Shown: positions 2 to 54,185, counted from the stretch's first letter. The stretch is DNA of 64,000 bases from Actinomycetales bacterium (GCA_047974565.1 JBKECN010000034.1:128760-192759), one strand, 5' to 3'. A program made the numbers and translations. The notes: generated from the sequence alone by a model not told the origin.

Positions 2-1759
2 GTGCTGATCAACCCCGACGCTGAAAGCGATCGATGGGGTAATGACCTGTTCCCAAAGGACTTCATTATCAGCCTTCCGAGACCAGCCACATATGTCGGA
101 GCGGAGCGAGTTTTCGGCCGCCCCGCCTTGGAGCACGAAGACCAGGGAGTCACAGGCCTGGACGTGGTTCGTATCGTACCGGACAGCGAGATCTCTGACT
201 TGGTCCCTAGGGGTAAGGCCGCCTTGGCTTCGTGGGAGCCCACCGTCACTGAAACCCTTCGAGCGGCTATGCTCGACTGGGTACTCGCGACCGCAGGCAA
301 GATCCACCGACTTGGTGATGGCATCTCCACCATGTTGGTTCACACGACTCAGCGAATCGCGCAGCAAAATGAACTGGCCGCGGCGATCAGTGGCGAAATG
401 AAGTTGATCCGACAGAGGTGGCGATTCGATCGAGAGTCACTTAGGCCCGAGCTGCTTGAGCGTTGGAACCGCGACTTCCGACCAGTCACAGTAAGCATGG
501 ACGCCTCACTCGACGCTCGCTTCGGCGAGATTGAACCCCACATCGACGACCTGCTCGAACGGGCAGACGGACTCCGCATGCTCGTTCTCAACAGCGAGAG
601 TCCCGATCTCCTCGACTACGAAGCAGATCCACGACTCAAGGTGCTTCTCATTGGCGGCAACCGGCTCAGCCGAGGGCTCACACTCGAAGACTTGACCGTG
701 TCGTTCTACGTCCGTGAGGCGGCGACCTACGACACCCTGCTCCAGATGGGCCGTTGGTTCGGCTACCGAGGCAAATTTATTGACCTTACTCGATTGTGGA
801 CAACTGGAGAGCTAGTCGCGCGTTTTCGCCACCTCTCACTGGTGGAGGAGGATTTGCGAGACCAGATTAAGATCTATGAGCGTGAGAACCTCACACCCGT
901 CCAAATAGCCCCCAAGATCAGGGCCCACCCGGATATGCTGGTCGTGGCTAAGAACCGGATGGGGAGCGCCGAGTCTGTGCGGCAGTCCTATTCCGGCGAG
1001 CTCATCCAGATGACCCGGTTCAAGCTCGACGACGATGAGTGGCTGGAGCACAACCTGACCATCACTCGTGAACTGGTGAGCGCACTGGGACGACCCAACG
1101 GCGTACCGAACGGTCGTGTGGAGCGACCGGCTTGGTCTGATGTACCGTGGGGATACATCGAAGGGTTTCTGCAACGGTTTCGGACCGCGCAGGACGCCAT
1201 GTCCTTCGACGCCGACACAGCAGCACGCTATATCCGTCGTCAGGCGGAACGCCACGGTGAACTGACTAGCTGGTCTGTGGCGGTACAATGCGGCATTCAA
1301 TTGGATTCGACACTTGGCCGATGCAATTTGGGGTTGTCACGCGGCCCGGTCCCGGCGATCGGCCGCAGTCGCCTGAAAGCGGACCCACGATCAATCGGTG
1401 CATTAGTGAGTCCCGCACGCGAGAACAACCTCGCTGCGGCGGATGAGTCGGCGGATCTCACGTCAATTGAGATCGCACGAGCTGCGAAGCTAAGTGACAC
1501 CTTTCCCACCCGTGGTCACGCGCTGCGCTGGCAACGACCGAGCACGCGCGGGCTGCTCCTGATCTACCCCATTAGCCCCTCCTCAAGACCGGGTCCCAAT
1601 GCTAAGAACCGCGAGCCACTATTCGATGACAGTGTAGGCCGACCCCACGTGATCGGAATCGCACTTTCCTTCCCCCCTTCCTACACAGGCGCAACGGTTG
1701 AGTACGTTGCTGGTATGCCGAGCAGCCACGCCGTCAAGCTCGCCGAGGACATCGGTTGA
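2..1759 (+). CDS. Z1 domain protein, C-terminal 585 aa (5' end lies left of the window)
   Basis: The frame is open from the window edge. It contains GGNRLSRGLTLEDLTVSFYVREAATYDTLLQMGRWFGYRGKFIDLTRLW, the helicase-C-like signature block of Z1 domain proteins found in DNA-modification/restriction cassettes. The stop TGA 1757-1759 overlaps the next start (TGATG). Confidence 0.8.
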   Translation: MLINPDAESDRWGNDLFPKDFIISLPRPATYVGAERVFGRPALEHEDQGVTGLDVVRIVPDSEISDLVPRGKAALASWEPTVTETLRAAMLDWVLATAGKIHRLGDGISTMLVHTTQRIAQQNELAAAISGEMKLIRQRWRFDRESLRPELLERWNRDFRPVTVSMDASLDARFGEIEPHIDDLLERADGLRMLVLNSESPDLLDYEADPRLKVLLIGGNRLSRGLTLEDLTVSFYVREAATYDTLLQMGRWFGYRGKFIDLTRLWTTGELVARFRHLSLVEEDLRDQIKIYERENLTPVQIAPKIRAHPDMLVVAKNRMGSAESVRQSYSGELIQMTRFKLDDDEWLEHNLTITRELVSALGRPNGVPNGRVERPAWSDVPWGYIEGFLQRFRTAQDAMSFDADTAARYIRRQAERHGELTSWSVAVQCGIQLDSTLGRCNLGLSRGPVPAIGRSRLKADPRSIGALVSPARENNLAAADESADLTSIEIARAAKLSDTFPTRGHALRWQRPSTRGLLLIYPISPSSRPGPNAKNREPLFDDSVGRPHVIGIALSFPPSYTGATVEYVAGMPSSHAVKLAEDIG

Positions 1760-2745
1760 TGAGCGCTGACACTGAGGCTGCCTGGGCAGCACTCTCTATC
1801 CCGACTCGTGGACTGTCAGCGCTGTTACATCCCGATAGCAGGGAGGTGTGGCTTGCCATCGACGACCGTGGCAGGCGACATTTGCTGGTCGACGCATCTG
1901 GCGCTAACCCTGGCCATGTCTTGGTCAGCACCCACGGACTCAGAGCCGAGACCACGGAAATCTCCGTTGAGAGTGGGCCGCTGAGGGTCTGGGCCGACAT
2001 CGCATGCGTCGACAGCAGCCTTAATCAGACGTTCGTTGCAGTTGCCGAGGATCTTGTTGCCAACGTCACTGTCGCTCAAACACCTCTGGAAGCCGTCAAA
2101 CGGACCCTGCGCACCTGGCGCTGGTTCTGGGGGATCGATCCCAGTCAGATGTCTGACGCTGCCATGCTTGGCCTGTTCGGCGAGATGTGGTTTTTGGACC
2201 GTTGGGCACCGCTCCCAGCCGCCGTCAACGCTTGGCACGGGCCTGCTGGCCTTCGTCACGACTTCTCAAGCGCCGCCGTCTCTGTCGAGGTCAAGGCCAC
2301 GAGTGCTGGCGCCGCCGGCGCGCCGCGACACAGAATCGCGACGCTCGACCAACTGGACGATCCAGAGAGCGGCGAGTTGTACCTGTTCAGCGTGCACGCA
2401 ATTCCCGAGCCCAGTGCCGGTAACACACTGGCCGCCGTTGTTCAGCGGGTACGCTCCCGCGTTGCCAGCGATCCAGGCCTGCTCGATCTACTCGACCGAA
2501 GGCTTGCCCTCGCGGGCTGGTCTCCAGCCATCAACACCCATCAGCAGGTGGGGTACCGCGTCGCAGCGGAACGCCTCTATGTGATCAGCGACGAGTTCCC
2601 GCGCCTCACCCGAAACAGCTTTGTCCCGGGTCCCCCACCTGGTATCGACGACGTCAGTTACACGGTTGACCTCGCAGTCTGTGCCGAGTGGCTCATAGCA
2701 ACCGCGCCGGAGGACGCCTCCGAGAGGCTGCGAGGGTTGACTTGA
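1759..2745 (+). CDS. PD-(D/E)XK motif nuclease-like protein
   Basis: ATG 1759 overlaps the upstream stop. The core RHDF...VSVEVKAT fits the D...(D/E)xK nuclease motif. A position directly after a Z1 gene is the usual arrangement. The family call is from memory and was not searched. Confidence 0.6.
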   Translation: MSADTEAAWAALSIPTRGLSALLHPDSREVWLAIDDRGRRHLLVDASGANPGHVLVSTHGLRAETTEISVESGPLRVWADIACVDSSLNQTFVAVAEDLVANVTVAQTPLEAVKRTLRTWRWFWGIDPSQMSDAAMLGLFGEMWFLDRWAPLPAAVNAWHGPAGLRHDFSSAAVSVEVKATSAGAAGAPRHRIATLDQLDDPESGELYLFSVHAIPEPSAGNTLAAVVQRVRSRVASDPGLLDLLDRRLALAGWSPAINTHQQVGYRVAAERLYVISDEFPRLTRNSFVPGPPPGIDDVSYTVDLAVCAEWLIATAPEDASERLRGLT

Positions 2746-3449
2746 GTATTCGACCACAATCAATTGAGTCACTCACTCTGGCTCGGCATGACCAAAGCGA
2801 CTATCGGGTCACCATCTGGGCCGAAGGCATCGCTCGCCTCGATGGACACACCGGCATCCGACAGGGGGCCTGGGAAAGTCACTTTGACCCAGATTGGTTC
2901 TCGTGGATCGCCAACCACGCAAGGAATATTGAGCCTCGCAAGGTAAAGGCAAATGACTCGGTCGTGACGCTCGTGGTGGAAACCGCACGGGGCCGCTTCA
3001 TATATGAGTCTGGTGCGGCTAGTCAGTCCGAGTCCTTTTGGCTGCTAGCCACATTACTCGAGGGCGTGACGCATCGAGTAGGTTGGATACCCCTCGATGT
3101 CACGGGGGCCAGCGACTTCGCCCGCTGGGCCACCGGCGTTTCGGTGTGGCTGAATCAAGGACGGGCAATCGCGTCCGGCTTCGCCGCTAACGGATCGGTC
3201 GTTGTCCTCGCGGGCGGCCAGGCAAGCACGACAACGTCACAATCACTGGGGGAGCACTACAAAAAGATGCGAACAGAACTAATCGATGACGGTACATTCT
3301 CCATCCATGGCGACCACTTTAGGATTACTCGCCATCTGCATTTCGCGTCACCGTCCGCGGCCGCGAGCGTGCTCGTGGGCTCGAACACCAGCGGGCCCAG
3401 CGTATGGCGAGACTCGAGTGGGCACACGTGGTCTGAACTCGATCTTTGA
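2688..3449 (+). CDS. DUF4357-containing protein (third gene of the Z1 cassette)
   Basis: The C-terminal block GSVVVLAGGQAS...LIDDGTF...HFRITRHLHFASPSAAASVLVGSNTSGPSVWRDSSGHTWSEL fits the DUF4357 pattern. The N-terminal ~150 aa are unassigned. The start is ambiguous: ATG 2688 (58-nt overlap) or TTG 2742 overlapping the upstream stop (TTGA). Confidence 0.6.
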   Translation: MAHSNRAGGRLREAARVDLSIRPQSIESLTLARHDQSDYRVTIWAEGIARLDGHTGIRQGAWESHFDPDWFSWIANHARNIEPRKVKANDSVVTLVVETARGRFIYESGAASQSESFWLLATLLEGVTHRVGWIPLDVTGASDFARWATGVSVWLNQGRAIASGFAANGSVVVLAGGQASTTTSQSLGEHYKKMRTELIDDGTFSIHGDHFRITRHLHFASPSAAASVLVGSNTSGPSVWRDSSGHTWSELDL

Positions 3450-3552
3450 ATCCTTATTGGTGCCGCCCATGATATGCTCGCTGAGAAACGATTATTTCAT
3501 GGTTAAGGTAATTTTCGACATGGAGTTTCTCGCTGGTAGGGCTTTTAAGCGG

Positions 3553-3560
3553 TCAAAGTC
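3553..3560. repeat. Target-site duplication (left copy)
   Basis: TCAAAGTC lies immediately outside the left inverted repeat and is identical to 4971-4978. ISL3 elements make 8-bp duplications. Confidence 0.9.
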
Positions 3561-3587
3561 GGCCCTACTGACGGTTGTGTGGGTGGT
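3561..3587. repeat. ISL3 left terminal inverted repeat
   Basis: GGCCCTACTGACGGTTGTGTGGGTGGT is the exact reverse complement of 4944-4970. Confidence 0.95.
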
Positions 3588-3588
3588 T

Positions 3589-4956
3589 TTATTTGGTGTT
3601 GGTGACTGTTATTTGGGTGGGTAGGGGTGGGCATAGGCCGCTGCGGGTGAGCATGGCCATGGAGATGAGGGCGTGTGGGGTGTGGTAGCCGTTGGCTCGT
3701 TTGGTCAGGGCCCGTAGGTGGGTGTTGGTGGCTTCGCAGCGGGCGTTGGACAGGCCGTGGTCGAGGGTGTTGGTGATCAGTGGCAGGTGGCGGCGGAGTG
3801 TGGCGGCGAGGCGGACCAGGGCGGGCTGGTGGGAGTGGGCGGCCCAGGAGATGGCGCCGATGAGGTAGCGGCGCCCGTCGCGGCCTTTGAGTCGGAACAC
3901 GTTGCGGAGTTGTTCCTTGATCAGGTAGGCGGTGTAGAGGGGGGAGTTGATGGCGCGCAGGTCGGCCAGGGTCTGTTTCTGGGTGAGGGTGAGGTCGACG
4001 GGGTTCTTCACCAATGCCCACCGGGTGCCTTTGAGGTTGGCTGCCCGGGCGTGATGGCCTGCCCGGCGCAGGCGGTTCCACAGGTCGCGGCGGACCTGGT
4101 CCAGGGCGTCGTTGACCCACATGATCACGTGGAACGGGTCCAGGCAGAGCACTGCCTGCGGGGCGTGGGCGGCGACGGGTGCGTGTATCCAGTCGGCGCC
4201 ATCGGCCGAAACGTGGGTGAGTCGTTTCGCGCGGTCGGGGCCCAGCTCGGTGAAGAACGCCTCGACCGTGGCGGCGTTGCGTCCCGGCCGGGCCCAGATC
4301 AGGCGGCCGGTGTCGTGATCGATGACGCACACCAGGTACCGGTGGCCCTTGCGGTAGGCGATCTCATCGATCCCGATCCGGGTCACCCCCTCCAGCAGAT
4401 CCACCCGCCCCGACGCCTCGCGGACCACCCGGTCCACCACCGCGGTCACCGTCCGCCACGCCACCCGCAGCACCGCCGCCACCGTCGAGGCCGGTGCATG
4501 GGCAACCAGCCACGCCACCATGTCCTCAAACCCGCGGGTGTGTTTAGCACCCGGACGGGCCCACGGCACCTGCGCGACCACCACCCCATGCTCACCGCAC
4601 CGCACCCGCGGGGCGTCGGCCTCCAGGAACACCTTCATCACCCCGTGATCCAGGCTCCGCCACCGACGCCGGCCCCGGCCCTGGTCATAGCCCGCACACC
4701 GGACCCCACACCGTGCACACTGGCCCCGAGCCCCGAACCTGACCCGGACCGAGACCACCACCACCCGGCCCCCGACCACCCGCTCGTCATCCTCCAGATC
4801 CACACTCTCGACCACCAACCCGGGCACCCCGAGCATCGCCTGCCATACCCTGGACTCGCGCACGCCGTCGCCTTCCCACGATCCCGACCTTGACACTCGG
4901 AACCGTAACCAGGCCACGGCGTGTCGCACACCCCCCACCAACCACCACCCACACAA
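3589..4956 (-). CDS. ISL3 family transposase
   Basis: The 455-aa ORF has typical ISL3 blocks: CARCG zinc-finger-like N-terminus, IGIDEIAYRKGHRYLVCVIDHDTGRLIW, LCLDPFHVIMW, LSNARCEATNTHLRALTKRANGY. ATG 4956 lies inside the right inverted repeat, so a downstream start (MLGVPGL, 4836) is possible. Confidence 0.92.
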   Translation of the reverse strand: MCGWWLVGGVRHAVAWLRFRVSRSGSWEGDGVRESRVWQAMLGVPGLVVESVDLEDDERVVGGRVVVVSVRVRFGARGQCARCGVRCAGYDQGRGRRRWRSLDHGVMKVFLEADAPRVRCGEHGVVVAQVPWARPGAKHTRGFEDMVAWLVAHAPASTVAAVLRVAWRTVTAVVDRVVREASGRVDLLEGVTRIGIDEIAYRKGHRYLVCVIDHDTGRLIWARPGRNAATVEAFFTELGPDRAKRLTHVSADGADWIHAPVAAHAPQAVLCLDPFHVIMWVNDALDQVRRDLWNRLRRAGHHARAANLKGTRWALVKNPVDLTLTQKQTLADLRAINSPLYTAYLIKEQLRNVFRLKGRDGRRYLIGAISWAAHSHQPALVRLAATLRRHLPLITNTLDHGLSNARCEATNTHLRALTKRANGYHTPHALISMAMLTRSGLCPPLPTQITVTNTK

Positions 4957-5276: not shown

Positions 5277-7151
<1,875 letters not shown>

Positions 7152-36372: not shown

Positions 36373-36494
36373 CCGACGATCGACTGGTTGCAGACGAGCG
36401 AAGGTTCGGCTCCTGGCGACACCATGTTCGGGGTCGACGCCCCACGCGCCCGGCAGGCCCCCGCTGCGCGGCTTGGCAAGTCGGAGGCAGAGCG

Positions 36495-37145
36495 TCGACG
36501 CCCCACGCGCCCCGCGGGCCCGCGGGCCGCGCCCACCCCCCAAGCGCCCCACCAGCCACGCGTACCACCCACGGACGCAGACACCCGGCATCCCACCGGC
36601 CGCCACCCCCGCGACCACGAACCCAGTGACCACTCTCGCGTCCCTGAGACACATTTACGTACACCGAACCGGAGCGGCGGGCACCACCCGCTCGCGGTGT
36701 AGACAAACACGTCCCAGCCACACATTTGCGTACACCAGAACGAGGCGGGATCGACGCCCCACGCGCCCGGCAGGCCCGCGGGCCGCGCCAACCCCCCAAG
36801 CGCCCCACCAGCCACGCGCACCACCCACGAACCCAGACCACCGGCATCCCACCGGACGCCACCCCCGCGACCACGAACCCAGTGAACACTTTCGCGTCCC
36901 TCAGACACATTTACGTACACCGAACCGGAGCGGCGGGCACCACCCGCTCCCGGTGTACACAAACACGTCCCAGCCACACATTTGCGTACACCAGAACGCG
37001 GCGGGGTCGACGCCCCACGCGCCCGGCAGGCCCGCGGACCGCGCCAACCCCCCAAGCGCCCCACCAGCCACACGTACCACCCACGAACGCAGACCACCGG
37101 CATCCCACCGGACGCCACCCCGCGACCACGAACCCGGTGAACACG
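36495..37145. repeat. 256-bp tandem repeat, about 2.5 copies (plus a ~30-nt partial copy at 36433)
   Basis: TCGACGCCCCACGCGCC starts at 36495, 36751 and 37007 (period 256). Copies are more than 90 percent alike by eye. The plus strand is strongly C/A-rich. Each unit carries ACACATTTRCGTACACC twice, flanking a 14-bp interrupted hairpin. Confidence 0.92.
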
Positions 37146-37611: not shown

Positions 37612-37834
37612 CCGCACACCGTATCCGGGCGGATCGCCCGTCGAGGACGACGCCCCTGCGCGCCGGCGGTGGACACGCATCCGGCTGCCTGCTGGTAGCC
37701 TTGTGTGTTGCGTGTCCGCGTGGTCGTGCGGGCGCCATCTTTTGTGTGACCCACGATGCAGTGTCCCCACCCTGCGCGCGGGCCGCCAGCCCTCACCGAC
37801 CAGTGACCCGAAAGACCGACGAGAAAGCAGACCT

Positions 37835-38098
37835 GTGGCGAACATCAAGTCCCAGATCAAGCGCAACAAGACCAACGAGAAGGCTCGGCTGCGCAACAAG
37901 GCCGTCAAGTCCGAACTCAAGACGGCCGTCCGCTCGTTCCGAGACGCCGTCAAGGGCGGCGATGCCGACGCCACCAGCAAGGCGCTGGCGAACGCCTCTC
38001 GCAAGCTGGACAAGGCCGTGAGCAAGGGCGTCATCCACAAGAACCAGGCGGCCAACCGCAAGTCGGCGATGGCCAAGGCGGCTGCCAACGCCTCCTGA
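37835..38098 (+). CDS. rpsT: 30S ribosomal protein S20
   Basis: [30 protein letters not shown]..., 87 aa, GTG start. Confidence 0.95.
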
Positions 38099-38128
38099 GT
38101 CTCGTATCGAGCTGAGTGTCGTATCGAG
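38095..38128 (+). repeat. 17-bp tandem duplication containing the rpsT stop codon
   Basis: CTGAGTCTCGTATCGAG / CTGAGTGTCGTATCGAG. The first unit contains TGA 38096-38098. Confidence 0.9.
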
Positions 38129-38156
38129 CCCGCCCGGTGTCGAACCGGGCGGGCTC
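38126..38156 (+). terminator. rpsT terminator hairpin (no U-tract)
   Basis: Perfect 12-bp stem GAGCCCGCCCGG-TGTCGAA-CCGGGCGGGCTC, 28 nt after the stop. This is the I-shaped type common in high-GC actinobacteria. Confidence 0.55.
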
Positions 38157-38521
38157 GTGCGTATCCGGGCGCACGACCTCAGGCGGTTGGGGAGTGACCC
38201 TGGCGTGGTGACCGGCGATCTCCCGGTGGGAGACCACACCGCCATGGTGCGTTGGTCGGCCTGCAAGCTCGGCACGGCCCTGGGCGGGCTCGGTCAGCGG
38301 GCACGGTCGGCGGGCTCGGCACGGCCGGGCGGGTTCATCCGGCGGGCGATGAAGCCAAGGCAGGTGCAGATGACGGGTTGCCACTTCGGTGACCAGTGAC
38401 TCACTTCTGACCCCAGTGAGCAGCATCCGGCGGCGAATCGGAACCCGGCGGGCAATCGCATCGCGATGTACGGTTGAACACCCCGTTCACGCGTCCTGGC
38501 TCACTGACGAGGCGGTTGAAG

Positions 38522-39685
38522 ATGAGTTCGCTCCCACGGCGGGTCCTGGCGTGCGGTGGCCTGCTGGCGCTGCTGCTCGGGCTCGGCGCAACCTCAACCC
38601 AGGCTGCCCAGAGCAGGCCTGCACCCGCCCGAACCGGGACCATCCTCGTCGAGCCGTGGAGCGAAGGCACGCTCCCCGGCCAGCCACCTGTCATCACCGT
38701 CTTCGCCAGCTGCGTCCGCTGGGCCGCCCCCGGTGTCACCGAGGCAGTCTTCGGCTACGAGAGCAGCGCGGATCGATCGATCCTGGTGGACCTCGGGCCG
38801 CTCAACGACGTCCACGTCACGCCACGACGCACTCTCGGCTCCCACCCGCCGTCCGCCCAAGGCCCGTCCACTGACAGCCAGGCCACTACCATCGAACCCC
38901 CCGGTGGTGAGGCGGTCGCGACCCCGCTGAGCGATCCAGCCACTCAGGCCCGACACAAGCGATCCAGGCCGCCCACGTCTCAGCCGGTCCAGTCGCAGCC
39001 CACCCTGATCCTGCCCGACCGGCGTGAACCGTATGTCTTCGCCATCCGATATCCGACTGGGCTCGGCGCGGCCTGGCAGATCGCCAGCCCTTCGCCGGCA
39101 GGCCTCGACGCGAGTCCCGACTGGCGAGTGACCGCCACCACCAGACGAGCCCCCCGATGCGGCTCAGATGTCCCTGATCACTTCTCGGTCGTGCAGTCTG
39201 CCGGCGTCTTCGGCTTGGAGAAACGCAACGAGGTATGGCAAACCGACACCGCCATCCCCCACCTGACGGGATACGACATCGGCATCGCCGGCGCCGACGA
39301 TGACGCGATCGCTTGCAGCCCGGGCGGTGTGCCCATGCCGAGCACCCGGTGGTTCGCCTGGCCGGCCTCTGACGTCAATCTGCTGCCGCTGAACGATCCG
39401 GACGCCCGTGACGTCGTGATCGAAGGGCGGGCCTTCCAGATGAGTACCGTGGACGCTCGCCCGGTCGCCGACGTGACCCAGCCCACCGGCTGGACGGGGC
39501 CGTACGTCGATGTGATCGGCCGGTGCGCCTTCGCGGACGGAGCCACGGCCACCAGCCTCCCCTTCTGGGTCGACTCCACCACCAACTGGGATTTCCAGCC
39601 CATGTTCGACGATCCGAGCGATCCCACCGCCGTCACCTGGATCAGGGTGCTGGCGGTCTCCCCCGGAGGGGTCAGAATTCGGTGA
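38522..39685 (+). CDS. Secreted Cys-containing protein, unknown family (paralog A)
   Basis: Signal peptide MSSLPRRVLACGGLLALLLGLGATSTQA. Long identical blocks with 48420-49607. The start was chosen by alignment of the RBS regions (GAGGCGGTTGAAGATG vs GAGGCGGTTGTAGATG). Confidence 0.75.
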   Translation: MSSLPRRVLACGGLLALLLGLGATSTQAAQSRPAPARTGTILVEPWSEGTLPGQPPVITVFASCVRWAAPGVTEAVFGYESSADRSILVDLGPLNDVHVTPRRTLGSHPPSAQGPSTDSQATTIEPPGGEAVATPLSDPATQARHKRSRPPTSQPVQSQPTLILPDRREPYVFAIRYPTGLGAAWQIASPSPAGLDASPDWRVTATTRRAPRCGSDVPDHFSVVQSAGVFGLEKRNEVWQTDTAIPHLTGYDIGIAGADDDAIACSPGGVPMPSTRWFAWPASDVNLLPLNDPDARDVVIEGRAFQMSTVDARPVADVTQPTGWTGPYVDVIGRCAFADGATATSLPFWVDSTTNWDFQPMFDDPSDPTAVTWIRVLAVSPGGVRIR

Positions 39686-39842
39686 CCGCGGGGTGCGCCC
39701 GCTGCGGTCCGACGCGGCCATCACAGTGCCGCGCGGGTGGGGTCCAGGGCAGTGTCGCGAAGTCGATGCCGGCGCAGCGGCTCGGTTTCTCCCCGCCACC
39801 CGAAGCATGTCTGCCGCGAGCGGCTTACTCAGACCTGTCGGG

Positions 39843-40865
39843 CTATCCACCGCAAGCGGTGACCACGAGCCGCTCCATCGTGTAGACGGGGTCTGCGGTC
39901 CGGCCGTAAATGGTGTCGGCGATCTCCACCCCTCCTTTGAGTGCTACGTCGGCAGCGGCCACGTCGATGATCGCTGCGGCCAGATCGTCGGGCGGCCAGT
40001 TCCGTAGGTGCCGCCGGGCCTGGTCGACCATCCATGGGGCCATCCCGAGTTCCTTGGCGACTTGCCCACCGGCGCCAGTGGCGACCGAGACCTTCGCGAG
40101 TTGGCGTAGTTTCACCGCGATGGCGGCCAGCATCGGGATGGGATCGACCCCGGAGTCGAGGGCACGACGCACGGTGAGCAGGGCCCGCCCGGCGTCCCGG
40201 GCGACGACTGCGTCGGCCACCTCGAACCCGGACGCCTCGGCGCGGCCACCGTAGTACCGCTGCACGTCGGCGATGTCGATGTCGGTGTCGATGTCGCTCA
40301 TCAGCTGGGCGCAGGAGGCGGCGAGTTCGCGAAGGTCGGAGCCGAAGGCGTCGACGAGCAGTTGGGCCGCCGGGGAGGAGATGGTGCGCCGGGCGTCGGC
40401 GAACTCCTGCCCGACGAAGGAGAGCAGTTCGTTATCGCGTTTGATCGCGGGGCAGTCCACCCACACCACGTCCGGGACGGTCTTGGCCCGGTCTACCAGC
40501 TTCTTGGCCCGCACTCCCCCGCCGTGGCACAGCACGAGGACGACGTCGGGCTGGGGGTCGTCCAGGTAGGCCAGTACTTCGGTGACCGCAAGGTCGTTGG
40601 CCTCGGCGAGCCCGACGACGGTCACCATCCGGTGCTCCTCGAAGAGGGAGGGACTGGCCAGGCGAGCCAGAGTGCCGGGCTGGTAGCTGGCGGCCTCGAC
40701 GCGGGTGGCCTCGACCTGCTCGTGTGCCTGACGCGCCTGGGTCTGCACGCGTGCCGCGGCCCGGTCGACGAGCAGGCTCTCGGGGCCCGTGACGAGCACC
40801 ACCGGGGCTGGGCGTGCCTGCTTCCAGGTGAGGGCCTTGCCGGTGGAGCGTTTGGCTGGAGGCAT
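39843..40865 (-). CDS. holA: DNA polymerase III subunit delta
   Basis: PVVLVTGPESLLVDRA...SLFEEHRMVTV... is the delta N-domain pattern, and the gene sits in the conserved position between rpsT and comEC. Trimmed to ATG 40865. Confidence 0.85.
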   Translation of the reverse strand: MPPAKRSTGKALTWKQARPAPVVLVTGPESLLVDRAAARVQTQARQAHEQVEATRVEAASYQPGTLARLASPSLFEEHRMVTVVGLAEANDLAVTEVLAYLDDPQPDVVLVLCHGGGVRAKKLVDRAKTVPDVVWVDCPAIKRDNELLSFVGQEFADARRTISSPAAQLLVDAFGSDLRELAASCAQLMSDIDTDIDIADVQRYYGGRAEASGFEVADAVVARDAGRALLTVRRALDSGVDPIPMLAAIAVKLRQLAKVSVATGAGGQVAKELGMAPWMVDQARRHLRNWPPDDLAAAIIDVAAADVALKGGVEIADTIYGRTADPVYTMERLVVTACGG

Positions 40866-41974: not shown

Positions 41975-42050
41975 GCCGGCCGCAACAACGGCATGCCAAC
42001 CTCGTCGCATGTGCCGACTTCGGCATGCCGGAACCCGCGGGTCCCCGGGA
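41975..42050 (+). repeat. Dispersed ~65-nt palindromic element, copy 1
   Basis: CAACGGCATGCCAACCTCGTCGCATGTGCCGACTTCGGCATGCCGGAACCCG. CGGCATGCCAA and its complement form the stem. Confidence 0.85.
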
Positions 42051-42128: not shown

Positions 42129-42575
42129 TCAGGCATTCAGGCAAAGCGATGCTGCGTTGTCCCAGAACACTGCGCGGACCTGCGCTGGGTCCAACACCTG
42201 CCGGACGAGATCGAAGTCCTCGTCACGGAAGGGACGGCGGGCCCGGGTCGAGGGCAGATCGCTGCCGACCATCAGTGCGCTTGGGTTCACCGCCATGATC
42301 GCGGGATCACGTTGGCCGGATTGAGGGTCACCCGCCCGAATCCGGTGGCCTTGATCTTGACGCCACGCTCGGCCAGGCGCAGCAGTGTGCTCACGCCCTC
42401 TGGTCGGGGGCCTGAGTTGGGTGACGCCGACCAAGGTGGGATCCAGCGCGGCCAACGCACCAACCAGATAGCTCTGGTCGAACCCTTGGAATGACCCCGA
42501 CACCACCGCCCCGCCGGCCACACCCAGCCCAGCGACGCGGTCTCGGTAGTCCACGGCGGTGAAGGGTCCCGGCGC
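42129..42575 (-). pseudogene. Amidohydrolase-2 family gene remnant (N-terminally truncated, frameshifted)
   Basis: Family-like blocks are split over two minus frames: LLRLAERGVKIKATGFGRV in one, and ALMVGSDLPSTR...VFWDNAASLCLNA in the other. It is far shorter than a full-length enzyme. Confidence 0.6.
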
Positions 42576-42636
42576 CGCAACAACGGCGTGCCAACCTCGT
42601 CGCATGTGCCGACCTTGGCATACCGAGACCCGAGTC
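42573..42636 (+). repeat. Dispersed ~65-nt palindromic element, copy 2
   Basis: CAACGGCGTGCCAACCTCGTCGCATGTGCCGACCTTGGCATACCGAGACCCG, in the same orientation as copy 1. Confidence 0.85.
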
Positions 42637-42688
42637 AGGCGACGGTTTGTATAGTGGCTCATATAACATCGACCCGGAGGGATTTGCT

Positions 42689-43323: not shown

Positions 43324-43693
43324 GCCAGCTGGAGCCGAGGCTCCACGACCGGCGGCCAAGGTCAGACTGACTCCCGCCACAACGGCCTACATGGCTGCGA
43401 GCCCCAGCACCCGACCGAAATAGGGTTCAGGGGCAGAGTCCAGAACGCCTCCACCTGGCCGTCGCTCGTGTCGACCACGTAGTCAGTAATCCGCTTGGCC
43501 ATCGGCCGGTCCTTGCGGGGCGGGGGCGCGCAGCGACTTGGCGGCTTCTGGATGCAGCCCAATGGTCCAAGCCAAGTTCGGCCACCACCTCGGCCAGGGG
43601 TCTGGGTGGGCACCGCTCCGGAGCCGATCTCACCGACTCGCACAAATAGAACGAGCGCGAACGGTGTGTCCGCCTGGCCAGAGCATCGAGCCT

Positions 43694-43765
43694 CCCGCAG
43701 CAACGGCATGCCAACCTCGTCACATGTGCCGACTTTGGCATGCCGAAACCCGAGGGTTCCCGACG
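43694..43765 (+). repeat. Dispersed ~65-nt palindromic element, copy 3
   Basis: CAACGGCATGCCAACCTCGTCACATGTGCCGACTTTGGCATGCCGAAACCCG, with a perfect 11-bp stem CGGCATGCCAA/TTGGCATGCCG. Confidence 0.85.
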
Positions 43766-47291: not shown

Positions 47292-48188
47292 ATGCCACCG
47301 TGCTTGACTCAGGGCATGCCGTCCGACCCGATCGGCCCGCGCCGAGCGGCCGACCGCACCCACGCCTCACCCACCCACACCTCACCCACACGCGCCTCCG
47401 GCACACCAGGGCCCGCGCCCCGGCCAGGCCCGCCGGCGCACCCCGCCTCGACGAGACACCACGCAACGACCACCCAACCTGGGCAAGACAGCCCAAACAG
47501 ACCAGCGGATCAGGACTTCGCACTGCTGCAGTCACTGTCGCCGCAGGCCCGCGCCAGCCTGCTGCAGCGAGCCCGGCGCCGAACCTTCGCCCGCCGTGAC
47601 GTGGTGGTGCAGGAGGGCGACCCGGCGGACAGCCTGCACTTGGTCAGTTCGGGCCGGCTGGCGGTGCGGGCTTCCACCGCGGACGGCGAGTCCGCGCTGC
47701 TGACGATCCTGGTACCGGGCGACTACTTCGGCGAACTGGCCCTGATGCCCGGACGCTCCGGACGCCGTACCGCCACCGTGCTGGCGCTCGAACCAGCCGA
47801 GACGCTGAGTATCGACTCGGGCACCTTCCGGGACCTGCGGGCCAGCCACCCCGACGTGCAGGAAGTGGTCGCCGAAGCGCTCGCCCGGCGGGTGGAGGAC
47901 CTGTCCGCCCGGCTGCTGGAGGCCCTCTACATGAGCCTGGACGTGCGCGTGTGCCGGCGCCTGGACCACCTGGCCACCATCTACGCCGACCGTGATGCCG
48001 GGCACCGGCAGGGTCCGGCGGGGGTGGTCATCCCCCTCACCCAGGAGGCACTCGCCGAGTTCGTCGGAGGCACCCGCCCCTCGGTCAACATCGTGCTGCG
48101 CCGCTTGCAGCATGAGGGAGTGATCGAGGTGTCCCGGGGCCGGGTGACGATCCGCGACCGTCGGGCCCTGTCTGCGCTGCTGGGCTGA
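47292..48188 (+). CDS. Crp/Fnr family transcriptional regulator (cNMP-binding + HTH)
   Basis: cNMP-binding block VVQEGDPADSLHLVSSGRLAV...GDYFGELALM...RTATVLA. HTH block TQEALAEFVGGTRPSVNIVLRRLQHEG. No start codon lies close to the domain, so ATG 47292 or 47316 gives a Pro-rich leader. The start is low confidence. Confidence 0.8.
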   Translation: MPPCLTQGMPSDPIGPRRAADRTHASPTHTSPTRASGTPGPAPRPGPPAHPASTRHHATTTQPGQDSPNRPADQDFALLQSLSPQARASLLQRARRRTFARRDVVVQEGDPADSLHLVSSGRLAVRASTADGESALLTILVPGDYFGELALMPGRSGRRTATVLALEPAETLSIDSGTFRDLRASHPDVQEVVAEALARRVEDLSARLLEALYMSLDVRVCRRLDHLATIYADRDAGHRQGPAGVVIPLTQEALAEFVGGTRPSVNIVLRRLQHEGVIEVSRGRVTIRDRRALSALLG

Positions 48189-48226
48189 TCCACGCTGCTG
48201 GGCTGATCCACGCTGCTGGCCTGACC
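48175..48226 (+). repeat. 18-bp tandem repeat x2.9 containing the crp-like stop codon
   Basis: CGCTGCTGGGCTGATCCA x2 plus CGCTGCTGGCCTGACC. TGA at 48186, 48204 and 48222, all in the same frame. Confidence 0.92.
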
Positions 48227-48419
48227 GAGTCGTCGGCGCCGACGACATACATCAACCGGCCAGCGTCACTCCAGGCCACTCGACGACCCCGCAACCCCCT
48301 ACCGCACCGGCGCGGCGACCCCGTCGGGCGGATCACGCAATCCTGGCGATCAGCCCGGCCCGATGCTAGGTTTAACAGTCCCGCTCACGTGTGGTGGCTC
48401 CTCCAGGAGGCGGTTGTAG

Positions 48420-49607
48420 ATGCGTCCGTTCCCCCGCCGAATCCTCTGGCACAGTAGCCTTCTCGCCGCCCTGCTGCTCGTCGTCGGCGCAACCTCCGCG
48501 CAGGCGCACCGCCCCGACGACGACCCGTCCCGGACCGGGTACACCCACGTCGAGCCGTGGACCCCGGGTGTGGTTCCCGACCTGCCGCCCGCGATCACGG
48601 TCTTCGCCAGTTGCGTCCGCCAGGTCGATCGCGGAACAACCGAAGCGGTCTTCGGGTATGAGAGCACCGCTGCCAAGTCGATCCTGCTGGAACTGGGTGA
48701 GCTGAATGCCGTGCAGGTCCTCGGCCCCCGCCGCCATCACTCCGCTACCGACGCCACCCTGGGCGAGGCTGACGACTCCCAGGCCACCACCAGCGATCCC
48801 GCGAGTGGGGACACCTCCGCGACCGGCGCGGCGGCGACCGTCCAGGGCGAGTCGACCGACCGGGCCAGGCATTGGCGGGGCCGGTGGACCCCGGTGGAGG
48901 CGGTCCAATCGCAGCCCACCCTGATCCTGCCGCAGCGGCGCGAAGCGTACGTCTTCGCGGTGCGGTATCCGACCGGGATGGGCGCGTCGTGGGAGATCGC
49001 CAGCCGGCCGCAGCAGGCACTCGACTCCAGCCCCGATTGGCGAGTGACTGCCACCACCAGCCGAGCCCCCCGGTGCGGCCCACAGGTGCCCGAGCACTTC
49101 TCGGTGGTGCAGGTGCCGGACCACTACAGCATCACCAAGGCAAACGAGGTCTGGAGCATCGGCACCCCTATCGCGCACCTGGCCGGCTACGACGTCCGCA
49201 TGGGACCTTTCGGGCCCGCCCTCGAGCAGATCGCCTGCAGCCCGGGAGGCGTGCCCACCCCCAGCACCGTGTGGTTCGCGTGGCCGACGTCTGGGGCCAA
49301 CCTGCAGCCCCTGGACGATCCGGACGCCCCCCACGTCGTGATCGGCGGTCTGCCCTATCTGATGAGCACTGGGGACACCGCCCGAGTCGCGGACGTGAGC
49401 CAGCCGCTGCGACTGTTCGGGCCGAACGTCGACGTCTTCGGTCACTGCGCCTTCGACGACGGCACCACCGCCACCAGCCTGCCCTTCTGGGCAGACCAGC
49501 CGACCCGGTGGGACTTCCAGCCGGTCTTCGAGGACCCCACCGATCCCACTGCCGTCACCGGAGTCGTGACGATGTCGGCCTCTCCCGGTGGGGTCAGAAT
49601 TCGCTGA
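48420..49607 (+). CDS. Secreted Cys-containing protein, unknown family (paralog B)
   Basis: Signal peptide MRPFPRRILWHSSLLAALLLVVGATSAQA. Shares TVFASCVR, EAVFGYES, VQSQPTLILP, DWRVTATT, APRCG, EHFSVVQ, IACSPGGVP, TATSLPFW and SPGGVRIR-stop with paralog A. Its stop abuts the next ORF. Confidence 0.8.
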   Translation: MRPFPRRILWHSSLLAALLLVVGATSAQAHRPDDDPSRTGYTHVEPWTPGVVPDLPPAITVFASCVRQVDRGTTEAVFGYESTAAKSILLELGELNAVQVLGPRRHHSATDATLGEADDSQATTSDPASGDTSATGAAATVQGESTDRARHWRGRWTPVEAVQSQPTLILPQRREAYVFAVRYPTGMGASWEIASRPQQALDSSPDWRVTATTSRAPRCGPQVPEHFSVVQVPDHYSITKANEVWSIGTPIAHLAGYDVRMGPFGPALEQIACSPGGVPTPSTVWFAWPTSGANLQPLDDPDAPHVVIGGLPYLMSTGDTARVADVSQPLRLFGPNVDVFGHCAFDDGTTATSLPFWADQPTRWDFQPVFEDPTDPTAVTGVVTMSASPGGVRIR

Positions 49608-52600
49608 GTGACGATGCCCGTGCGCGAGGCTGCCATGCAGCACGGCCGCGCTGAGCCAGACGTCGTGCGGGTCGAGGGTTCTTTCCTGGCCGCCGACGTC
49701 AATGGCTTCACGCCGCTCACCGAACGGCTGGCCCGCGCCGGCCGGATCGGGGCGGAGGCTGTTGCCGGGGTGATGGCCGAGTGCTTCACGGCGCTGCTCG
49801 AGCCGCTCGGCCCGCTCGACGGCTCGGTCATGTTCTTCGGCGGGGACGCGCTCTTCGTCGTCTTCGACGGACCGGACCACCAGATACGGGCCGTGCAGGC
49901 CGCGCTCGCCATGCGTCAGGTGCTTCATCGGCTCGGACGGATCGAGACTCCGCTGGGCTCGGTGCGCCTGAGCATGGCGATGGGGATCGCCACTGGCAGG
50001 GCGCAACAGGTGACGGTCGACCACGCCGACGCGGTGTACCTGCTCGGGCCCGTGATCAGCAGGACCCTTCAATTGCAGAAGGAGGCCGGGGCGGCGCAGA
50101 TCCGGATGGACGCCGGCACCCGCGCCGGTCAGCCGGACGGTCTCGTCCAGGCCGTGGACGCACGGACCTGGCGAGTGGCCCGGGACGCGCGTCCAGACCG
50201 CGGCGACGAACTGCCTGGCGCGCGCGAGGGCGCGAGCCGTCCGGACGAGCCAAAGTCGCTACCCGGCGTCGAGCGAGAACTGCCGAGCGGCCTGCAACTG
50301 ATGGCCGGGGCCGCCATCCCCGAACACCGCATCGTCTCAGTGGCTTTCGTCAACGTGCGGGGCCTGGACGAACTCACCGAGACGGCACGCCAGCGCCAGC
50401 TGGTCGAGATCACCCGGCTGGTGCGGGCCGCGGCCGAGGAGTTCGGGGTGCGCTGGGTGGAGACCGATGTCGCGGTAGATGGCGCGATCATCGTGCTGGC
50501 GGCAGGGGTGGGCACCCGGCATGACGACGACGAGCGGCGCCTGGCCGCCGCCGCCAGCCGGATCCTCACCGAGTGTGCACAATCCGGCTTCGGCGATGGG
50601 TCACAGGCCGGCGTCGCCATCGGCATGCACCGCGGAACGGCCTTCGTCGGCTCCGTCGGCCCCCAGTCACGGGGTTCGTGGGGTTCTCCCCCTCGATCGT
50701 CAACCACACCGGGCTCGGCAGCCGTCCCGAGCGGCGAAGCACGAGCCTCGGTCACCGGACTCACCACGGTGACCGCCGCCCGCCTCGCCGGCGCCGCCGC
50801 CACCGGAACCGCCCTGGCCAGTGACGAACTCACCTCCCGGCTGGCGGGACGGTACCTGCTCAAGGATCCCAGGCAGCTGGCCTTGAAGGGCCGCCGCGCC
50901 CCTGTCACCGCCGCCGTCCTGGGACCCCGCCGCGAGCAGGCCCGGTGGGCGGGCACGTCCGGACTGGTCGGCAGGTCCTCAGAGCTCGACCTGCTCACCC
51001 GAAGCTGGGACGAGCATCGAAGCGGTCGTGGCTCGGTCGTGGAGATCGTCGGACCGGCCGGGATGGGCAAGTCGGCACTGCTGGGTGCCTTCCTCGCCCG
51101 GTGCGGCGAACCGGAGATCGCCATCAGCGCCGACATCGCCGACTCGGTGGTGCCGTTCGGCGCCCTCTCCGCTCCGCTGCGAGCATGCCTGCCTGCCGAC
51201 CTGGCCGCCGTCGTCGCCGGTCTCGGCCCGCGAGGTGTCTTCCTGGCCCCGGTGCTGGGTCAGGACCTGCCACGCACCCCGGCGGTGGACGAGGTGGACA
51301 TCGACTCGGTCGCTCAGATACGCGCAACCCTGCTGGCGCTGCTACTGCAAGAGCGTCCCGGGCTGCTCGTCATCGACGACGCCCACTGGCTCGACCCCAG
51401 CAGCCTCGACCTGTTCGCCCGGGTGGGCCGACCCTTGGCCGACTCCGGATGGCTCATCGTGTTGACCCGTCGACCCGCCGCCGCACCCGTGGTGCCGGGT
51501 GCCCGGCTTCTCGACCTGGAACCCCTCGGCGACGCCGAGGTGGCCCGGCTGGTGGGCGCCGACCAGGGTCGTCCGCTCAGTGACGCCCGGCTCGACGCGG
51601 TGGTGGCCAAGGCGAGTGGAAACCCGCTCTATGCGCGCCAACTCGCCGCAGCGGTGGTCGACTCTTCCGGAGTGGGCCTGCCGGAATTGGCGGAGCAGGT
51701 GATCGGCGCGCGGATCGACCGCCTGGAGGCCGGAGTCCGACACCGGTTACGGGCGGCGAGCGTGCTGGGCGACCCGGTGGACCTCGAGCTGCTGGCCGAG
51801 CTCGTGCCCGATGCCGACCACGGCTGGGAGGCGGCCTCGGAGTTTGTCGTCGTGGACGAGGCTCGACTGCGGTTCAGGCACGACCAGATCAGGCTGGCGG
51901 CCTACGCCGGGCTGCGTTTCAGTGAGCGGGTGCGGCTGCACCGGGCCGTCGCCCTGGCCTTCGAGCGGCGCGCCGACGCCAACCCGGCCCGGCTCGCCGA
52001 CCACTGGCAGGCGGCCCGCGACCCGGCCCAGGTGCTGCGCTGGGCGGGCAAGGCGGCCCAGGACGCCCATACCCGGGCGGCGTACTTCGACGAAGCGCGG
52101 CTGCGGGCATTGATCGTGGAGAATGCCCGGGCTGCAGGGGTTTCCACCCGGGACCGGGCCGCGCTGTACGCGGAGCTGGCTCGATGTCACGAGACCAATG
52201 CGGAGTTCGAGCAGGCCGAGCGGGCGCTGGGGTCGGCGATGCGCTGGGCCGCCCAGGATCAGCGTCTGGACTTGCGGCACCGCCTGGCGCGGGTCGCCTT
52301 TCGTGGCGATCACCTCACCCTCGCGGTGCGACGAGCCTCGATGGCGCTGCGGTCGGCGCCGCCGGACACCCCGGTGCAGGCGGAACTGCTGGTGCTGCGG
52401 TCGGCGGTGCATGCGATGGCGGGCCGGCGCCGGCAGAGCGACCGGGACGCCCGGGCCGCCGATGAGGTGGCCACTCGGATCGGTCGCGATGACCTGCGGG
52501 GAACCGCGCTCAGCCAGCGGGCGCTGAACGCCGATGAGTACGCCGAGCCCGAGGCGGCCGAACTGGCCGCCGAGGCTGTTCCGCTGCTGAAGAAGGCCGG

Positions 52601-53411
52601 CTTGCACCGGGACCTGGCAGTGCTTCGGCTGAATCTGGGCATCAGCCTCATGGTGCGCGGCGACTGGGTGCGCGCGCTCGATGAGTTCGACCAGGCGACC
52701 GACGGTTTCACCCGGTCCGGTTTTGTCCTGGGGCTGGTGGCCACCGACATCAACCGGGCTGGGATCCTGCTCGAGCAAGGCCACGTGGACGAGGCATTCA
52801 CCCTGTTCGAATCCACCACCCGGCAGGCCAGCGCGGCGGGCAACCGCCGGCTCGCACGGTTCGCCTCCGGGTCCGCCCATCGCGCGCAGGCATGGCACGG
52901 GGACCATGACTCGGCGGTGCAGGGCCTGACCCGGGATATCACCGACCTGCGTGGTGACGGTCAGGACGGCGAGGCCGCCGACCTGGAGGCGTACTTGGCC
53001 GAGACTCTGCTGATGGCAGGACGTTTCGATGAGGTGCGCGAAGTGTGCAGCCGCTTGCTGGACGAACTCGCCGACCGTTCTCAGGAGGTGGTGGTGCTGA
53101 CGGTTGGGCGACTGGCCGCAGTCGCGTCCTATCGGGCGGGCGGCGGCCAGGCGTCCCTGCAGGCCCTACGTGACACCCTCGCCCAAGCCCGACAGCGCGA
53201 GTGCCGGATCGAGATAGCCAGGTGTCTGGCCGCCCTGCAGGAACTGGGTGAGCAGCTCGGCGCCGACGACCGGCGGGAACAAGCCGAGGCTCTGGCCAGC
53301 CTGGGGGTCGTGTGGATGCCACCGACCACCGACAGCGCCCACCTCACCAGGTCTCGCAGTCGCGACCTCTCAGGCCAGGCTGGGCTGCAACCAGGCACCG
53401 GGAGTCGTTGA
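49608..53411 (+). CDS. Tandem class III cyclase-homology domains + AAA_16 P-loop ATPase + TPR-like repeats (STAND-type signalling protein)
   Basis: CHD1: FLAADVNGFTPLTERL...FFGGDALFVVF. CHD2: VAFVNVRGLDELT...GVAIGMHRGTAFVGSVG...TVTAARLAG. Walker A GPAGMGKSALLGAF, Walker B LLVIDDAHWLD. About 650 aa of helical repeats follow. No C-terminal HTH was seen. GTG 49608 or ATG 49614. Confidence 0.85.
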   Translation: MTMPVREAAMQHGRAEPDVVRVEGSFLAADVNGFTPLTERLARAGRIGAEAVAGVMAECFTALLEPLGPLDGSVMFFGGDALFVVFDGPDHQIRAVQAALAMRQVLHRLGRIETPLGSVRLSMAMGIATGRAQQVTVDHADAVYLLGPVISRTLQLQKEAGAAQIRMDAGTRAGQPDGLVQAVDARTWRVARDARPDRGDELPGAREGASRPDEPKSLPGVERELPSGLQLMAGAAIPEHRIVSVAFVNVRGLDELTETARQRQLVEITRLVRAAAEEFGVRWVETDVAVDGAIIVLAAGVGTRHDDDERRLAAAASRILTECAQSGFGDGSQAGVAIGMHRGTAFVGSVGPQSRGSWGSPPRSSTTPGSAAVPSGEARASVTGLTTVTAARLAGAAATGTALASDELTSRLAGRYLLKDPRQLALKGRRAPVTAAVLGPRREQARWAGTSGLVGRSSELDLLTRSWDEHRSGRGSVVEIVGPAGMGKSALLGAFLARCGEPEIAISADIADSVVPFGALSAPLRACLPADLAAVVAGLGPRGVFLAPVLGQDLPRTPAVDEVDIDSVAQIRATLLALLLQERPGLLVIDDAHWLDPSSLDLFARVGRPLADSGWLIVLTRRPAAAPVVPGARLLDLEPLGDAEVARLVGADQGRPLSDARLDAVVAKASGNPLYARQLAAAVVDSSGVGLPELAEQVIGARIDRLEAGVRHRLRAASVLGDPVDLELLAELVPDADHGWEAASEFVVVDEARLRFRHDQIRLAAYAGLRFSERVRLHRAVALAFERRADANPARLADHWQAARDPAQVLRWAGKAAQDAHTRAAYFDEARLRALIVENARAAGVSTRDRAALYAELARCHETNAEFEQAERALGSAMRWAAQDQRLDLRHRLARVAFRGDHLTLAVRRASMALRSAPPDTPVQAELLVLRSAVHAMAGRRRQSDRDARAADEVATRIGRDDLRGTALSQRALNADEYAEPEAAELAAEAVPLLKKAGLHRDLAVLRLNLGISLMVRGDWVRALDEFDQATDGFTRSGFVLGLVATDINRAGILLEQGHVDEAFTLFESTTRQASAAGNRRLARFASGSAHRAQAWHGDHDSAVQGLTRDITDLRGDGQDGEAADLEAYLAETLLMAGRFDEVREVCSRLLDELADRSQEVVVLTVGRLAAVASYRAGGGQASLQALRDTLAQARQRECRIEIARCLAALQELGEQLGADDRREQAEALASLGVVWMPPTTDSAHLTRSRSRDLSGQAGLQPGTGSR

Positions 53412-54185
53412 GCGGCACACGAGCCGCCCGCACCGCTGGGGGGTCAGCAAGGCGGCCGGCCAATCGCCGGTGCTGTCGCGACCCCAGCGAGTCGAGGGTC
53501 GCGGGGCGCACCGCGGCTGCCCCTGTTCGGCGGTCGGATCGCTGCGCACGTCCTGGGGCGTGGACACCTGCGAAGGCGTGGACACCTGCGAAGGTGTTGA
53601 CACCTGCGAACCCGGCGCCTCCGAAGCCAGTCGAGCACTCACATGACCGATGGACAGTTCGCTGAGCATGGGTTCGCTCGCGTCCGCCGGTAGGTGCTCC
53701 GGAGCGGGAGTCGTCTCGTCGCCGGCCGGGTTGAAGGCACGCAGGTACCAGAGTTGCCGAACGGTGAGCTGGGTCAGGTCGCCTGGGCGGTGCCGACCGA
53801 TCTCGCTTCCCGGGCCGTGTGGGGTTGGTGGCACCGGAACCCGGGGCGGCGCCTGCCACGAACCAGGAACCGACGACCCGCGCAGCCGTGCTGTCCGACC
53901 CGCGGTGGGGGTGAGCAGGGCGACGATCCAGCCGGGCAATGCCCACCGCGAGCGTGCCAGCCGAGTCTGGACCCAGGACGTGGATGTCGCCGCGGAAGGT
54001 AATTCGGTAGGGGCGACACGAACGCGTTCGTGGAACAGGACATCGTCGGTGCGGCCGACCAGATCCGAGACGGTTCTGGTGGAAACCCTTTCAGGGAAGG
54101 CGTTCTCGGAGGTATTCCCCGCGAGACCACTGAGGTCGTCGAGGTCGGTCCGGCGGAGCGTGGCGGGGTCGAGAAGGGAAATCAT
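53370..54185 (-). CDS. Hypothetical protein (271 aa)
   Basis: The minus frame has a G/C-rich third position over the N-terminal ~100 codons, whereas the opposing plus ORF reads as Arg/Gly/Ser shadow. No family was recognised. The 3' end overlaps the cyclase 3' end by ~40 nt, so the C-terminal part is doubtful. Confidence 0.4.
   Translation of the reverse strand: MISLLDPATLRRTDLDDLSGLAGNTSENAFPERVSTRTVSDLVGRTDDVLFHERVRVAPTELPSAATSTSWVQTRLARSRWALPGWIVALLTPTAGRTARLRGSSVPGSWQAPPRVPVPPTPHGPGSEIGRHRPGDLTQLTVRQLWYLRAFNPAGDETTPAPEHLPADASEPMLSELSIGHVSARLASEAPGSQVSTPSQVSTPSQVSTPQDVRSDPTAEQGQPRCAPRPSTRWGRDSTGDWPAALLTPQRCGRLVCRSTTPGAWLQPSLA
53557..53610. repeat. 18-bp tandem repeat x3 (GGCGTGGACACCTGCGAA)
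   Basis: Read directly from the sequence. It encodes SQVSTP x3 in the minus ORF. Confidence 0.9.

Follow-up and report, generated by a model that had tools for sequence, protein, structure and literature searches.

The window analysed here, a stretch of 64,000 nt from an Actinomycetales bacterium (GCA_047974565.1, JBKECN010000034.1:128760-192759), contains two related genes for predicted exported proteins, which we refer to as paralog A and paralog B. Paralog A (38522-39685, plus strand) is a solo gene encoding a predicted exported all-beta protein of 387 amino acids. It is bordered on the left by rpsT, the gene of ribosomal protein S20 (37830-38098, plus strand, assigned by tblastn to relatives), and on the right by holA, the gene of DNA polymerase III delta (39843-40850, minus strand, Pfam DNA_pol3_delta_C). 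Paralog B (48420-49607, plus strand, 395 amino acids) is the copy that belongs to a gene cassette: its stop codon abuts the start of a gene with tandem cyclase-homology, AAA_16 and TPR domains (49608-53411, plus strand, 1267 amino acids), and a Crp-type regulator is encoded upstream (47292-48188, plus strand; the start codon is uncertain and the domains begin near 47490). The window has a guanine-cytosine (GC) content of ~70%, and its closest relatives are uncultured Actinomycetales or Actinomycetota metagenome-assembled genomes. An earlier interpretation made from the DNA alone (the sequence-only reading) had placed two open reading frames (ORFs) at the coordinates of A and B and regarded them as paralogs with many identical blocks. 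Both ORFs are present there, and BLASTP aligns the two proteins over their full length with 57% identity (E 7e-140). The genes have the same orientation and a distance of 9.9 kb, and a six-frame search of the whole assembly returned exactly these two family copies.

The two proteins have the same architecture. A basic n-region and a hydrophobic core, with its maximum at residues 8-22 in both (Kyte-Doolittle, 15-residue window), are followed by TQA/AQA as an Ala-x-Ala-type site, which agrees with the common signal peptide proposed previously; in A, the predicted signal peptide covers residues 1-28, and a signal-peptide-like N-terminus is found in all 26 full-length members of a family alignment that includes A and B. 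The four cysteine contexts and the C-terminal SPGGVRIR pointed out for the pair are likewise present in both proteins and recur across the 26 members, in which the cysteines (64, 213, 265 and 335 of A) are invariant together with P56, F77, G78, W185, P289 and D330. Y79, P381, G383 and R387 are conserved in at least 90% of the members, and the FGY motif and the C-terminal PGGxRxR are nearly invariant. The mature protein is acidic, with an isoelectric point near 4.9. We also considered a bacterial lipoprotein and rejected this possibility, as the lipobox test failed: in A, Cys11 lies before the hydrophobic core, and B does not have this cysteine.

The central Ser/Thr/Asp/Pro-rich linker, which had been described as different in A and B, does differ and turned out to be an insertion that is unique to these two proteins. 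It comprises ~55 residues inside the N-terminal domain (residues ~101-160 of A, 38822-39001, plus strand), is absent from the 24 other aligned members, is modelled as disordered by AlphaFold2 (predicted local distance difference test, pLDDT, <50 for residues 107-149) and changes at about twice the rate of the remaining protein (nonsynonymous divergence, dN, 0.59 vs 0.27). At the end of the insertion, just before VQSQPTLILP, both paralogs have kept a basic motif, ARH(K/W)R(S/G)R (38930-38990 and 48860-48900), which may be a processing site. For A versus B as a whole, a dN/dS of 0.46 at a synonymous divergence (dS) of 0.68 reveals purifying selection, and A, as an intact and selected duplicate, is probably functional.

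The similarity continues upstream of the coding regions. The ~60 nt before the genes had been called alignable, and in the 60-61 nt preceding both ATG codons we found 44 of 61 positions identical (z 8.8 against shuffles). This value lies beyond an empirical null for which ~6,000 real upstream regions were taken from the same genome, all with a ribosome-binding site and preceding long ORFs: the A/B alignment scores 25, and the next-best unrelated one 11. In A, the block (38462-38521, plus strand, -60 to -1) contains a -10-like TACGGT (38469-38474), an unstructured leader of ~45 nt and the Shine-Dalgarno (SD) sequence GAGG (38509-38512). In B (48359-48419, plus strand), the -10-like TAGGTT (48367-48372) is preceded by TGC, which makes it extended -10-like, and is followed by the SD sequence GGAGG and an in-frame TAG abutting the ATG. 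Both copies have in common a TAnnnT hexamer at the 5' edge of the block and an SD sequence near -14 to -11. Because of the in-frame TAG before the ATG of B and a 1-nt indel relative to A, the block is non-coding. Upstream of about -60, nothing could be aligned between A and B (score 17 vs a shuffle mean of 20.6). An identical 11-mer, GCATCGCGATG, was seen at 38456-38466 of the window and just upstream of the family gene in L012 (about 5955-5966; local alignment z 4.3, 36 pairs), and is probably due to chance.

Within the whole genome, the block is private to the two genes. A two-block profile used in nhmmer without filters recovered no sites other than the blocks of A and B (E 4e-16 and 4e-15; next E 3.7), and a search for a wider regulon with the 60-nt block by BLAST and nhmmer yielded no further sites. 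The identity of the block (72%) exceeds the 58.8% measured at four-fold degenerate sites, where 38.5% is expected by chance (binomial p 0.02). This conservation together with the occurrence at only two genome sites makes a shared promoter/leader a reasonable reading. Hence, from the shared promoter or operator suggested in the sequence-only reading, the conserved and private 5' region holds, whereas neither a Crp box nor a cross-lineage motif nor an RNA fold was found that would add substance to the operator part.

Taken together, we favour with fair confidence the interpretation that A is a dispersed duplicate of the cassette gene B that is functional and specific to this lineage, consists of promoter/leader and coding region and is co-controlled with the B-cyclase operon. 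The 5' block would then have promoter and leader roles, A and B would be co-regulated, and A is likely to be co-expressed with the B-cyclase operon. In several respects A resembles dispersed duplicates with their own promoter that arise by ordinary segmental duplication, as the coding region, which is under purifying selection, was copied along with the adjacent 5' region; it differs in that the pattern of a private 5' block recurs, with another sequence, in a second lineage of the family. In this lineage, three paralogs (g1 and g2 in L013 and one gene in L004, the latter from the same sample as L013) show 51-57% amino-acid identity to each other and share a block of ~62 nt before the ATG that is 68-83% identical, compared with 40-46% at four-fold sites (p 2e-11 to 3e-4). 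The block has a TAnnnT-like start and indels whose lengths are not divisible by three, in sequence it bears no relation to the A/B block, and a fold signal and covariation were looked for in it and not seen. Paralogs of the family tend to retain a 5' control block that is private and specific to their lineage, and the presence of such a block in a second lineage is therefore the strongest argument for the A/B block being functional and not a leftover.

Several results weigh against this interpretation. The excess of the 5' block over synonymous sites is modest, and it is non-significant without the SD-to-ATG part (31/45, p 0.11). A simple scan of the 5' regions did not find a recognisable sigma-70 promoter; in high-GC actinobacteria, a match to the sigma-70 consensus is often absent. 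No Crp box (TGTGA-N6-TCACA-like) was found in the block, where the best match reached 6/10, or upstream of the crp gene, and the best Crp-type match anywhere upstream of A (7/10) is not conserved in B. The upstream regions of 9 independent lineages have no common motif, with none above shuffles, and L013 and L004 are possibly not one genome. At the protein level, no fold or sequence relative with known function emerged from Pfam, a PDB profile search or Foldseek against PDB and BFVD, and the biochemical role is for this reason a guess. Moreover, export is predicted from sequence features only, and the four invariant cysteines probably form extracytoplasmic disulfides, which is again a prediction.

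Some of these results would also be expected if the shared 60 nt were a neutral residue of the duplicated segment, with a function limited to a generic ribosome-binding site. The loss of significance without the SD-to-ATG part and the lack of a detected known promoter, operator or RNA motif fit this explanation, which we nevertheless consider unlikely. The similarity ends abruptly at -60 with nothing alignable further upstream, although neutral sequence of the same age (59% identity at four-fold sites) should stay detectable had the duplicated segment reached further. The TAnnnT hexamer at the 5' edge of both copies and the same pattern in the independent lineage of L013/L004 (p 2e-11) also speak against a neutral residue.

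The insertion sites of both copies can be defined by comparison with related genomes. In 7 of 8 related genomes, the genes rpsT and holA converge with 109-197 nt between them, and here they are separated by 1,745 nt. Besides A, this gap consists of DNA (38099-38460 and 39686-39842) with no homologous sequence elsewhere in the genome or in the corresponding gaps of related genomes. The gap is a variable slot in other genomes as well: G002 (L022, 5816-6448) carries an unrelated lipoprotein-like ORF there, and in G004 (L043) the gap is 2.1 kb long. On the side of B, the same-genus genome G002 has comEA next to degV, and here ~7 kb lie between them, made up of the Crp-type gene, B, the cyclase gene and a short tail. 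The family tree groups A and B as sisters (100/100 support) on terminal branches of equal length, 0.32 and 0.35. For holA, dS between this genome and two same-genus relatives amounts to 0.86-1.05, more than the 0.68 between A and B; at face value, the duplication is therefore younger than the same-genus split. Both copies are absent from these two genomes, which fits such a timing, and neither was found in the full set of 60 relatives.

A different history, in which two separate horizontal transfers brought in A and B after a duplication in the donor, would account for the position of both copies in slots that are empty in relatives and for the patchy occurrence of the family, whose full-length members were detected by a six-frame hidden Markov model search in 2 of the 401 genomes sampled from the class, this one counted, which leaves 1 among 400 others. 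We regard this history as improbable. A and B are by far the closest relatives of each other, the next members being 32-38% identical, and they have in common the unique linker insertion as well as the private 5' block. Their dS lies below the genus-level dS, the GC content at both loci equals that of the flanks (0.68-0.71), and neither integrase genes nor flanking repeats were found around A or B.

The sequence-only reading had offered yet another origin, namely that the entire B-cyclase operon was copied to locus A and that a subsequent deletion reaching to holA removed the cyclase gene except for a relic at 39693-39842 with a weak parallel to the cyclase N-terminus. A whole-operon duplication is conceivable, given that a cyclase gene follows the family gene at 9/9 cassette loci, and A and B lie on the same strand at a distance of 9.9 kb. 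The supposed relic lies in the spacer that separates the stop codons of the convergent genes A and holA (39686-39842, 157 nt, non-coding), and here all tests failed. When aligned with the initial 300-1,200 nt of the cyclase gene, the spacer gave z values from 1.2 to 0.2, with 40 of 300 shuffles performing as well at z 1.2. The frame quoted for the parallel reached z -0.28 against the cyclase N-terminus (other frames 1.4 and 0.5), and a profile of eight orthologous cyclase N-termini, run with filters off over the six frames of 39686-39990, gave at most -1.5 bits, the quoted frame being absent from its list. Moreover, the spacer has no other copy in the genome. Since the nucleotide, frame, profile and genome-copy tests were all negative, the relic is unsupported. 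The homology of A and B ends exactly at the stop codon, and global alignments just past the stops score negative; thus the flanks exceed shuffled sequence upstream (z 8.8) and not downstream. Besides, 157 nt is a normal size for an rpsT/holA gap, holA is intact with full-length matches of 74-78% to same-genus genomes, and solo copies of the family gene exist elsewhere (L004 and L026). An operon copy with a deleted cyclase is therefore very improbable and would be conceivable only with a complete deletion that left no trace. The spacer was also inspected for an intrinsic terminator pattern, and none was found.

That the 5' block acts as a structured cis-regulatory RNA (riboswitch-like leader) or as a conserved upstream ORF (uORF) has hardly any chance of being correct: the block lies between the -10-like element and the ATG and would hence be transcribed, and B has a uORF of 19 codons (48362-48419) running from the conserved ATG of the block to the TAG that abuts the main ATG, but the block has no match in Rfam and zero compensatory pairs, both leaders fold less stably than shuffles (z +1.9 for A and +1.0 for B), and a conserved uORF is ruled out by its counterpart in A, which is merely ATG TAC GGT TGA, 3 codons.

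For A as a dispersed duplicate co-controlled with the B-cyclase operon, the simplest history has two steps: the cassette was acquired, and its first gene was then copied to a distant site together with the 5' region next to it. The Crp-B-cyclase block is an insert of ~7 kb that this lineage gained between comEA and degV, and after this acquisition B would have been copied together with its own 5' region into the normally short convergent gap between rpsT and holA. The duplicated unit of ~1.22 kb comprises the presumed core promoter/leader (-60 to -1) and the coding region and nothing more. The kept private 5' region would hold A under the transcriptional and translational control of the B-cyclase operon, and A would act as a second, diverged output of the B-cyclase module.

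The cassette itself is conserved. The cyclase gene downstream of B is recognised by Pfam AAA_16 (1.7e-19), TPR and a weak Guanylate_cyc match, with a weak PDB match to the adenylate cyclase 2w01, and it is present as a single copy, as no paralog was detected in the genome at E<1e-10. Orthologues with 33-49% identity are located directly downstream of the family gene in L003, L010, L011, L012, L013, L024, L025 and G269/L040, so that together with B all nine cassette loci examined have the order family gene followed by cyclase gene. The neighbour of B resembles class III cyclases with a STAND ATPase and TPR (sAC-like) in its tandem cyclase-homology domains, AAA_16 and TPR; this likeness is limited to the neighbour, and these cyclases are not relatives of A or B. 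The mycobacterial Rv0386-type cyclase-ATPases are an example of this class. To our knowledge, no exported partner has been described for sAC-like or Rv0386-type cyclases, and a limited literature search found none for such enzymes.

The Crp-type regulator upstream of B contains a cNMP_binding (1.7e-21) and an HTH_Crp_2 domain (2.3e-16, both Pfam). Within 48175-48246, at its 3' end, an 18-nt unit, CGCTGCTGGGCTGATCCA, is present in three tandem copies (two perfect, one 83%), which duplicate the last codons and the stop of the gene, and a perfect palindrome, GTCGTCGGCGCCGACGAC, at 48229-48246 directly after these repeats may be the crp terminator. Crp-type genes also stand beside the two tandem family genes of L013. 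There, four genes with cNMP-binding domains (a patatin fusion, a small gene and two Crp-type regulators) adjoin the tandem family genes and the cyclase at 625-4587, so that the cyclic-nucleotide neighbourhood is denser than that of the window. The distant member P0041 also follows a cNMP-binding gene. Besides A, solo members are P0004 (L004) and the distant P0035. The latter (L026/L027) is located between RibD_C and DJ-1/PfpI genes without a cyclase, and in L012 the same flanking types surround a family member together with a cyclase, which hints at cyclase gain or loss at one locus type.

The label "orphan" given to the exported protein before was inaccurate. An exhaustive profile search of 1.84 billion cluster representatives identified 105 of them at E<=1e-3 and 24 at E<=1e-30, and a word-indexed search of 5.8 billion proteins retrieved just two other relatives of A and B. 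Among the members are P0003, P0005-P0013, g1 and g2 of L013, and G269. Full-length members are rare: none occurs in 60 close relatives, two same-genus genomes included, and a pattern-based search of GTDB genomes returned no family members. A and B share with this unnamed four-cysteine partner family the signal peptide, the four cysteines, FGY, PGGxRxR and the two-domain all-beta model. They differ from it by the ~55-residue disordered insertion that no other member has. B stands in the canonical place directly upstream of the cyclase gene and A has no cyclase neighbour; judged by its protein sequence, A is a member by sequence and not by context.

Concerning the structure, the AlphaFold2 model obtained with the family alignment is all-beta and has two domains (mean pLDDT 81, 224 residues at 90 or above). 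In Foldseek, no significant match to PDB or BFVD was obtained (PDB best E 0.026, probability 0.09). The best matches were FN3-type chains below the threshold (E 0.026, probability at most 0.2, TM about 0.1), and the C-terminal domain of ~190 residues matches nothing in structure and sequence searches. A and B have no match in Pfam, NCBIfam or PADLOC, no family member contains a Pfam domain, and the family profile has no PDB sequence match. Measured against the refuting condition named in the sequence-only reading, the family did not turn out to be an already characterised domain. In a limited literature search we found neither a studied member nor a prior description of the exported family, and with no Pfam, NCBIfam or PDB entry we consider it undescribed. 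The N-terminal domain of ~100 residues is more widespread, occurring alone in proteins of ~200 amino acids in 19 of 400 sampled genomes of the class and as repeats in large surface-type proteins with DUF11, He_PIG, Big_9 or SpaA-like domains. In this recurrence beside them in secreted multi-domain proteins, the family is similar to Ig-like/FN3-like surface modules, but it differs from them by the lack of a significant structural match. As the N-terminal domain serves as a repeat module in large surface proteins, the general function most likely to apply is binding in the cell envelope or a structural role there, which we assign with low confidence.

For the window, the consequences of this analysis are mainly corrective: the duplicate is real, the deletion of a cyclase gene is unsupported, and the protein is not an orphan. 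In a broader context, large cytoplasmic cyclase-STAND-TPR proteins are common in actinobacteria, and the targets that they control are mostly unknown. An exported protein encoded upstream of the cyclase at 9/9 loci, with private 5' regions in two lineages, is a testable candidate for such an output or for an extracellular partner. A more speculative view, which we would hold only as a tentative and rather doubtful proposal, is that the family forms the dedicated extracellular arm of a self-contained cyclic AMP (cAMP) module, in which the exported protein would act with a cyclase-STAND sensor and a Crp-type receptor. All paralogs of a lineage, cassette-linked as well as solo, would be joined in one private regulon by a lineage-specific promoter/leader element of ~60 nt that evolves together with the module's own regulator, and A would be a second surface output. 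If true, A would represent an antigenically or functionally diverged surface output that is switched by the same cAMP signal.

Finally, repeats were seen near the genes discussed here. Downstream of the cyclase gene, the tail that ends at degV contains three tandem copies of an 18-nt unit, GGCGTGGACACCTGCGAA (53557-53610). Upstream of the rpsT region, a tandem array of a 256-nt unit in about three copies with 91-94% identity covers 36429-37144. A palindrome-rich element of ~73 nt (CGGCATGCC...GGCATGCCG) is present in three copies (41975-42047, 42570-42642 and 43690-43762), which lie around a vapBC-like pair between holA and comEC.

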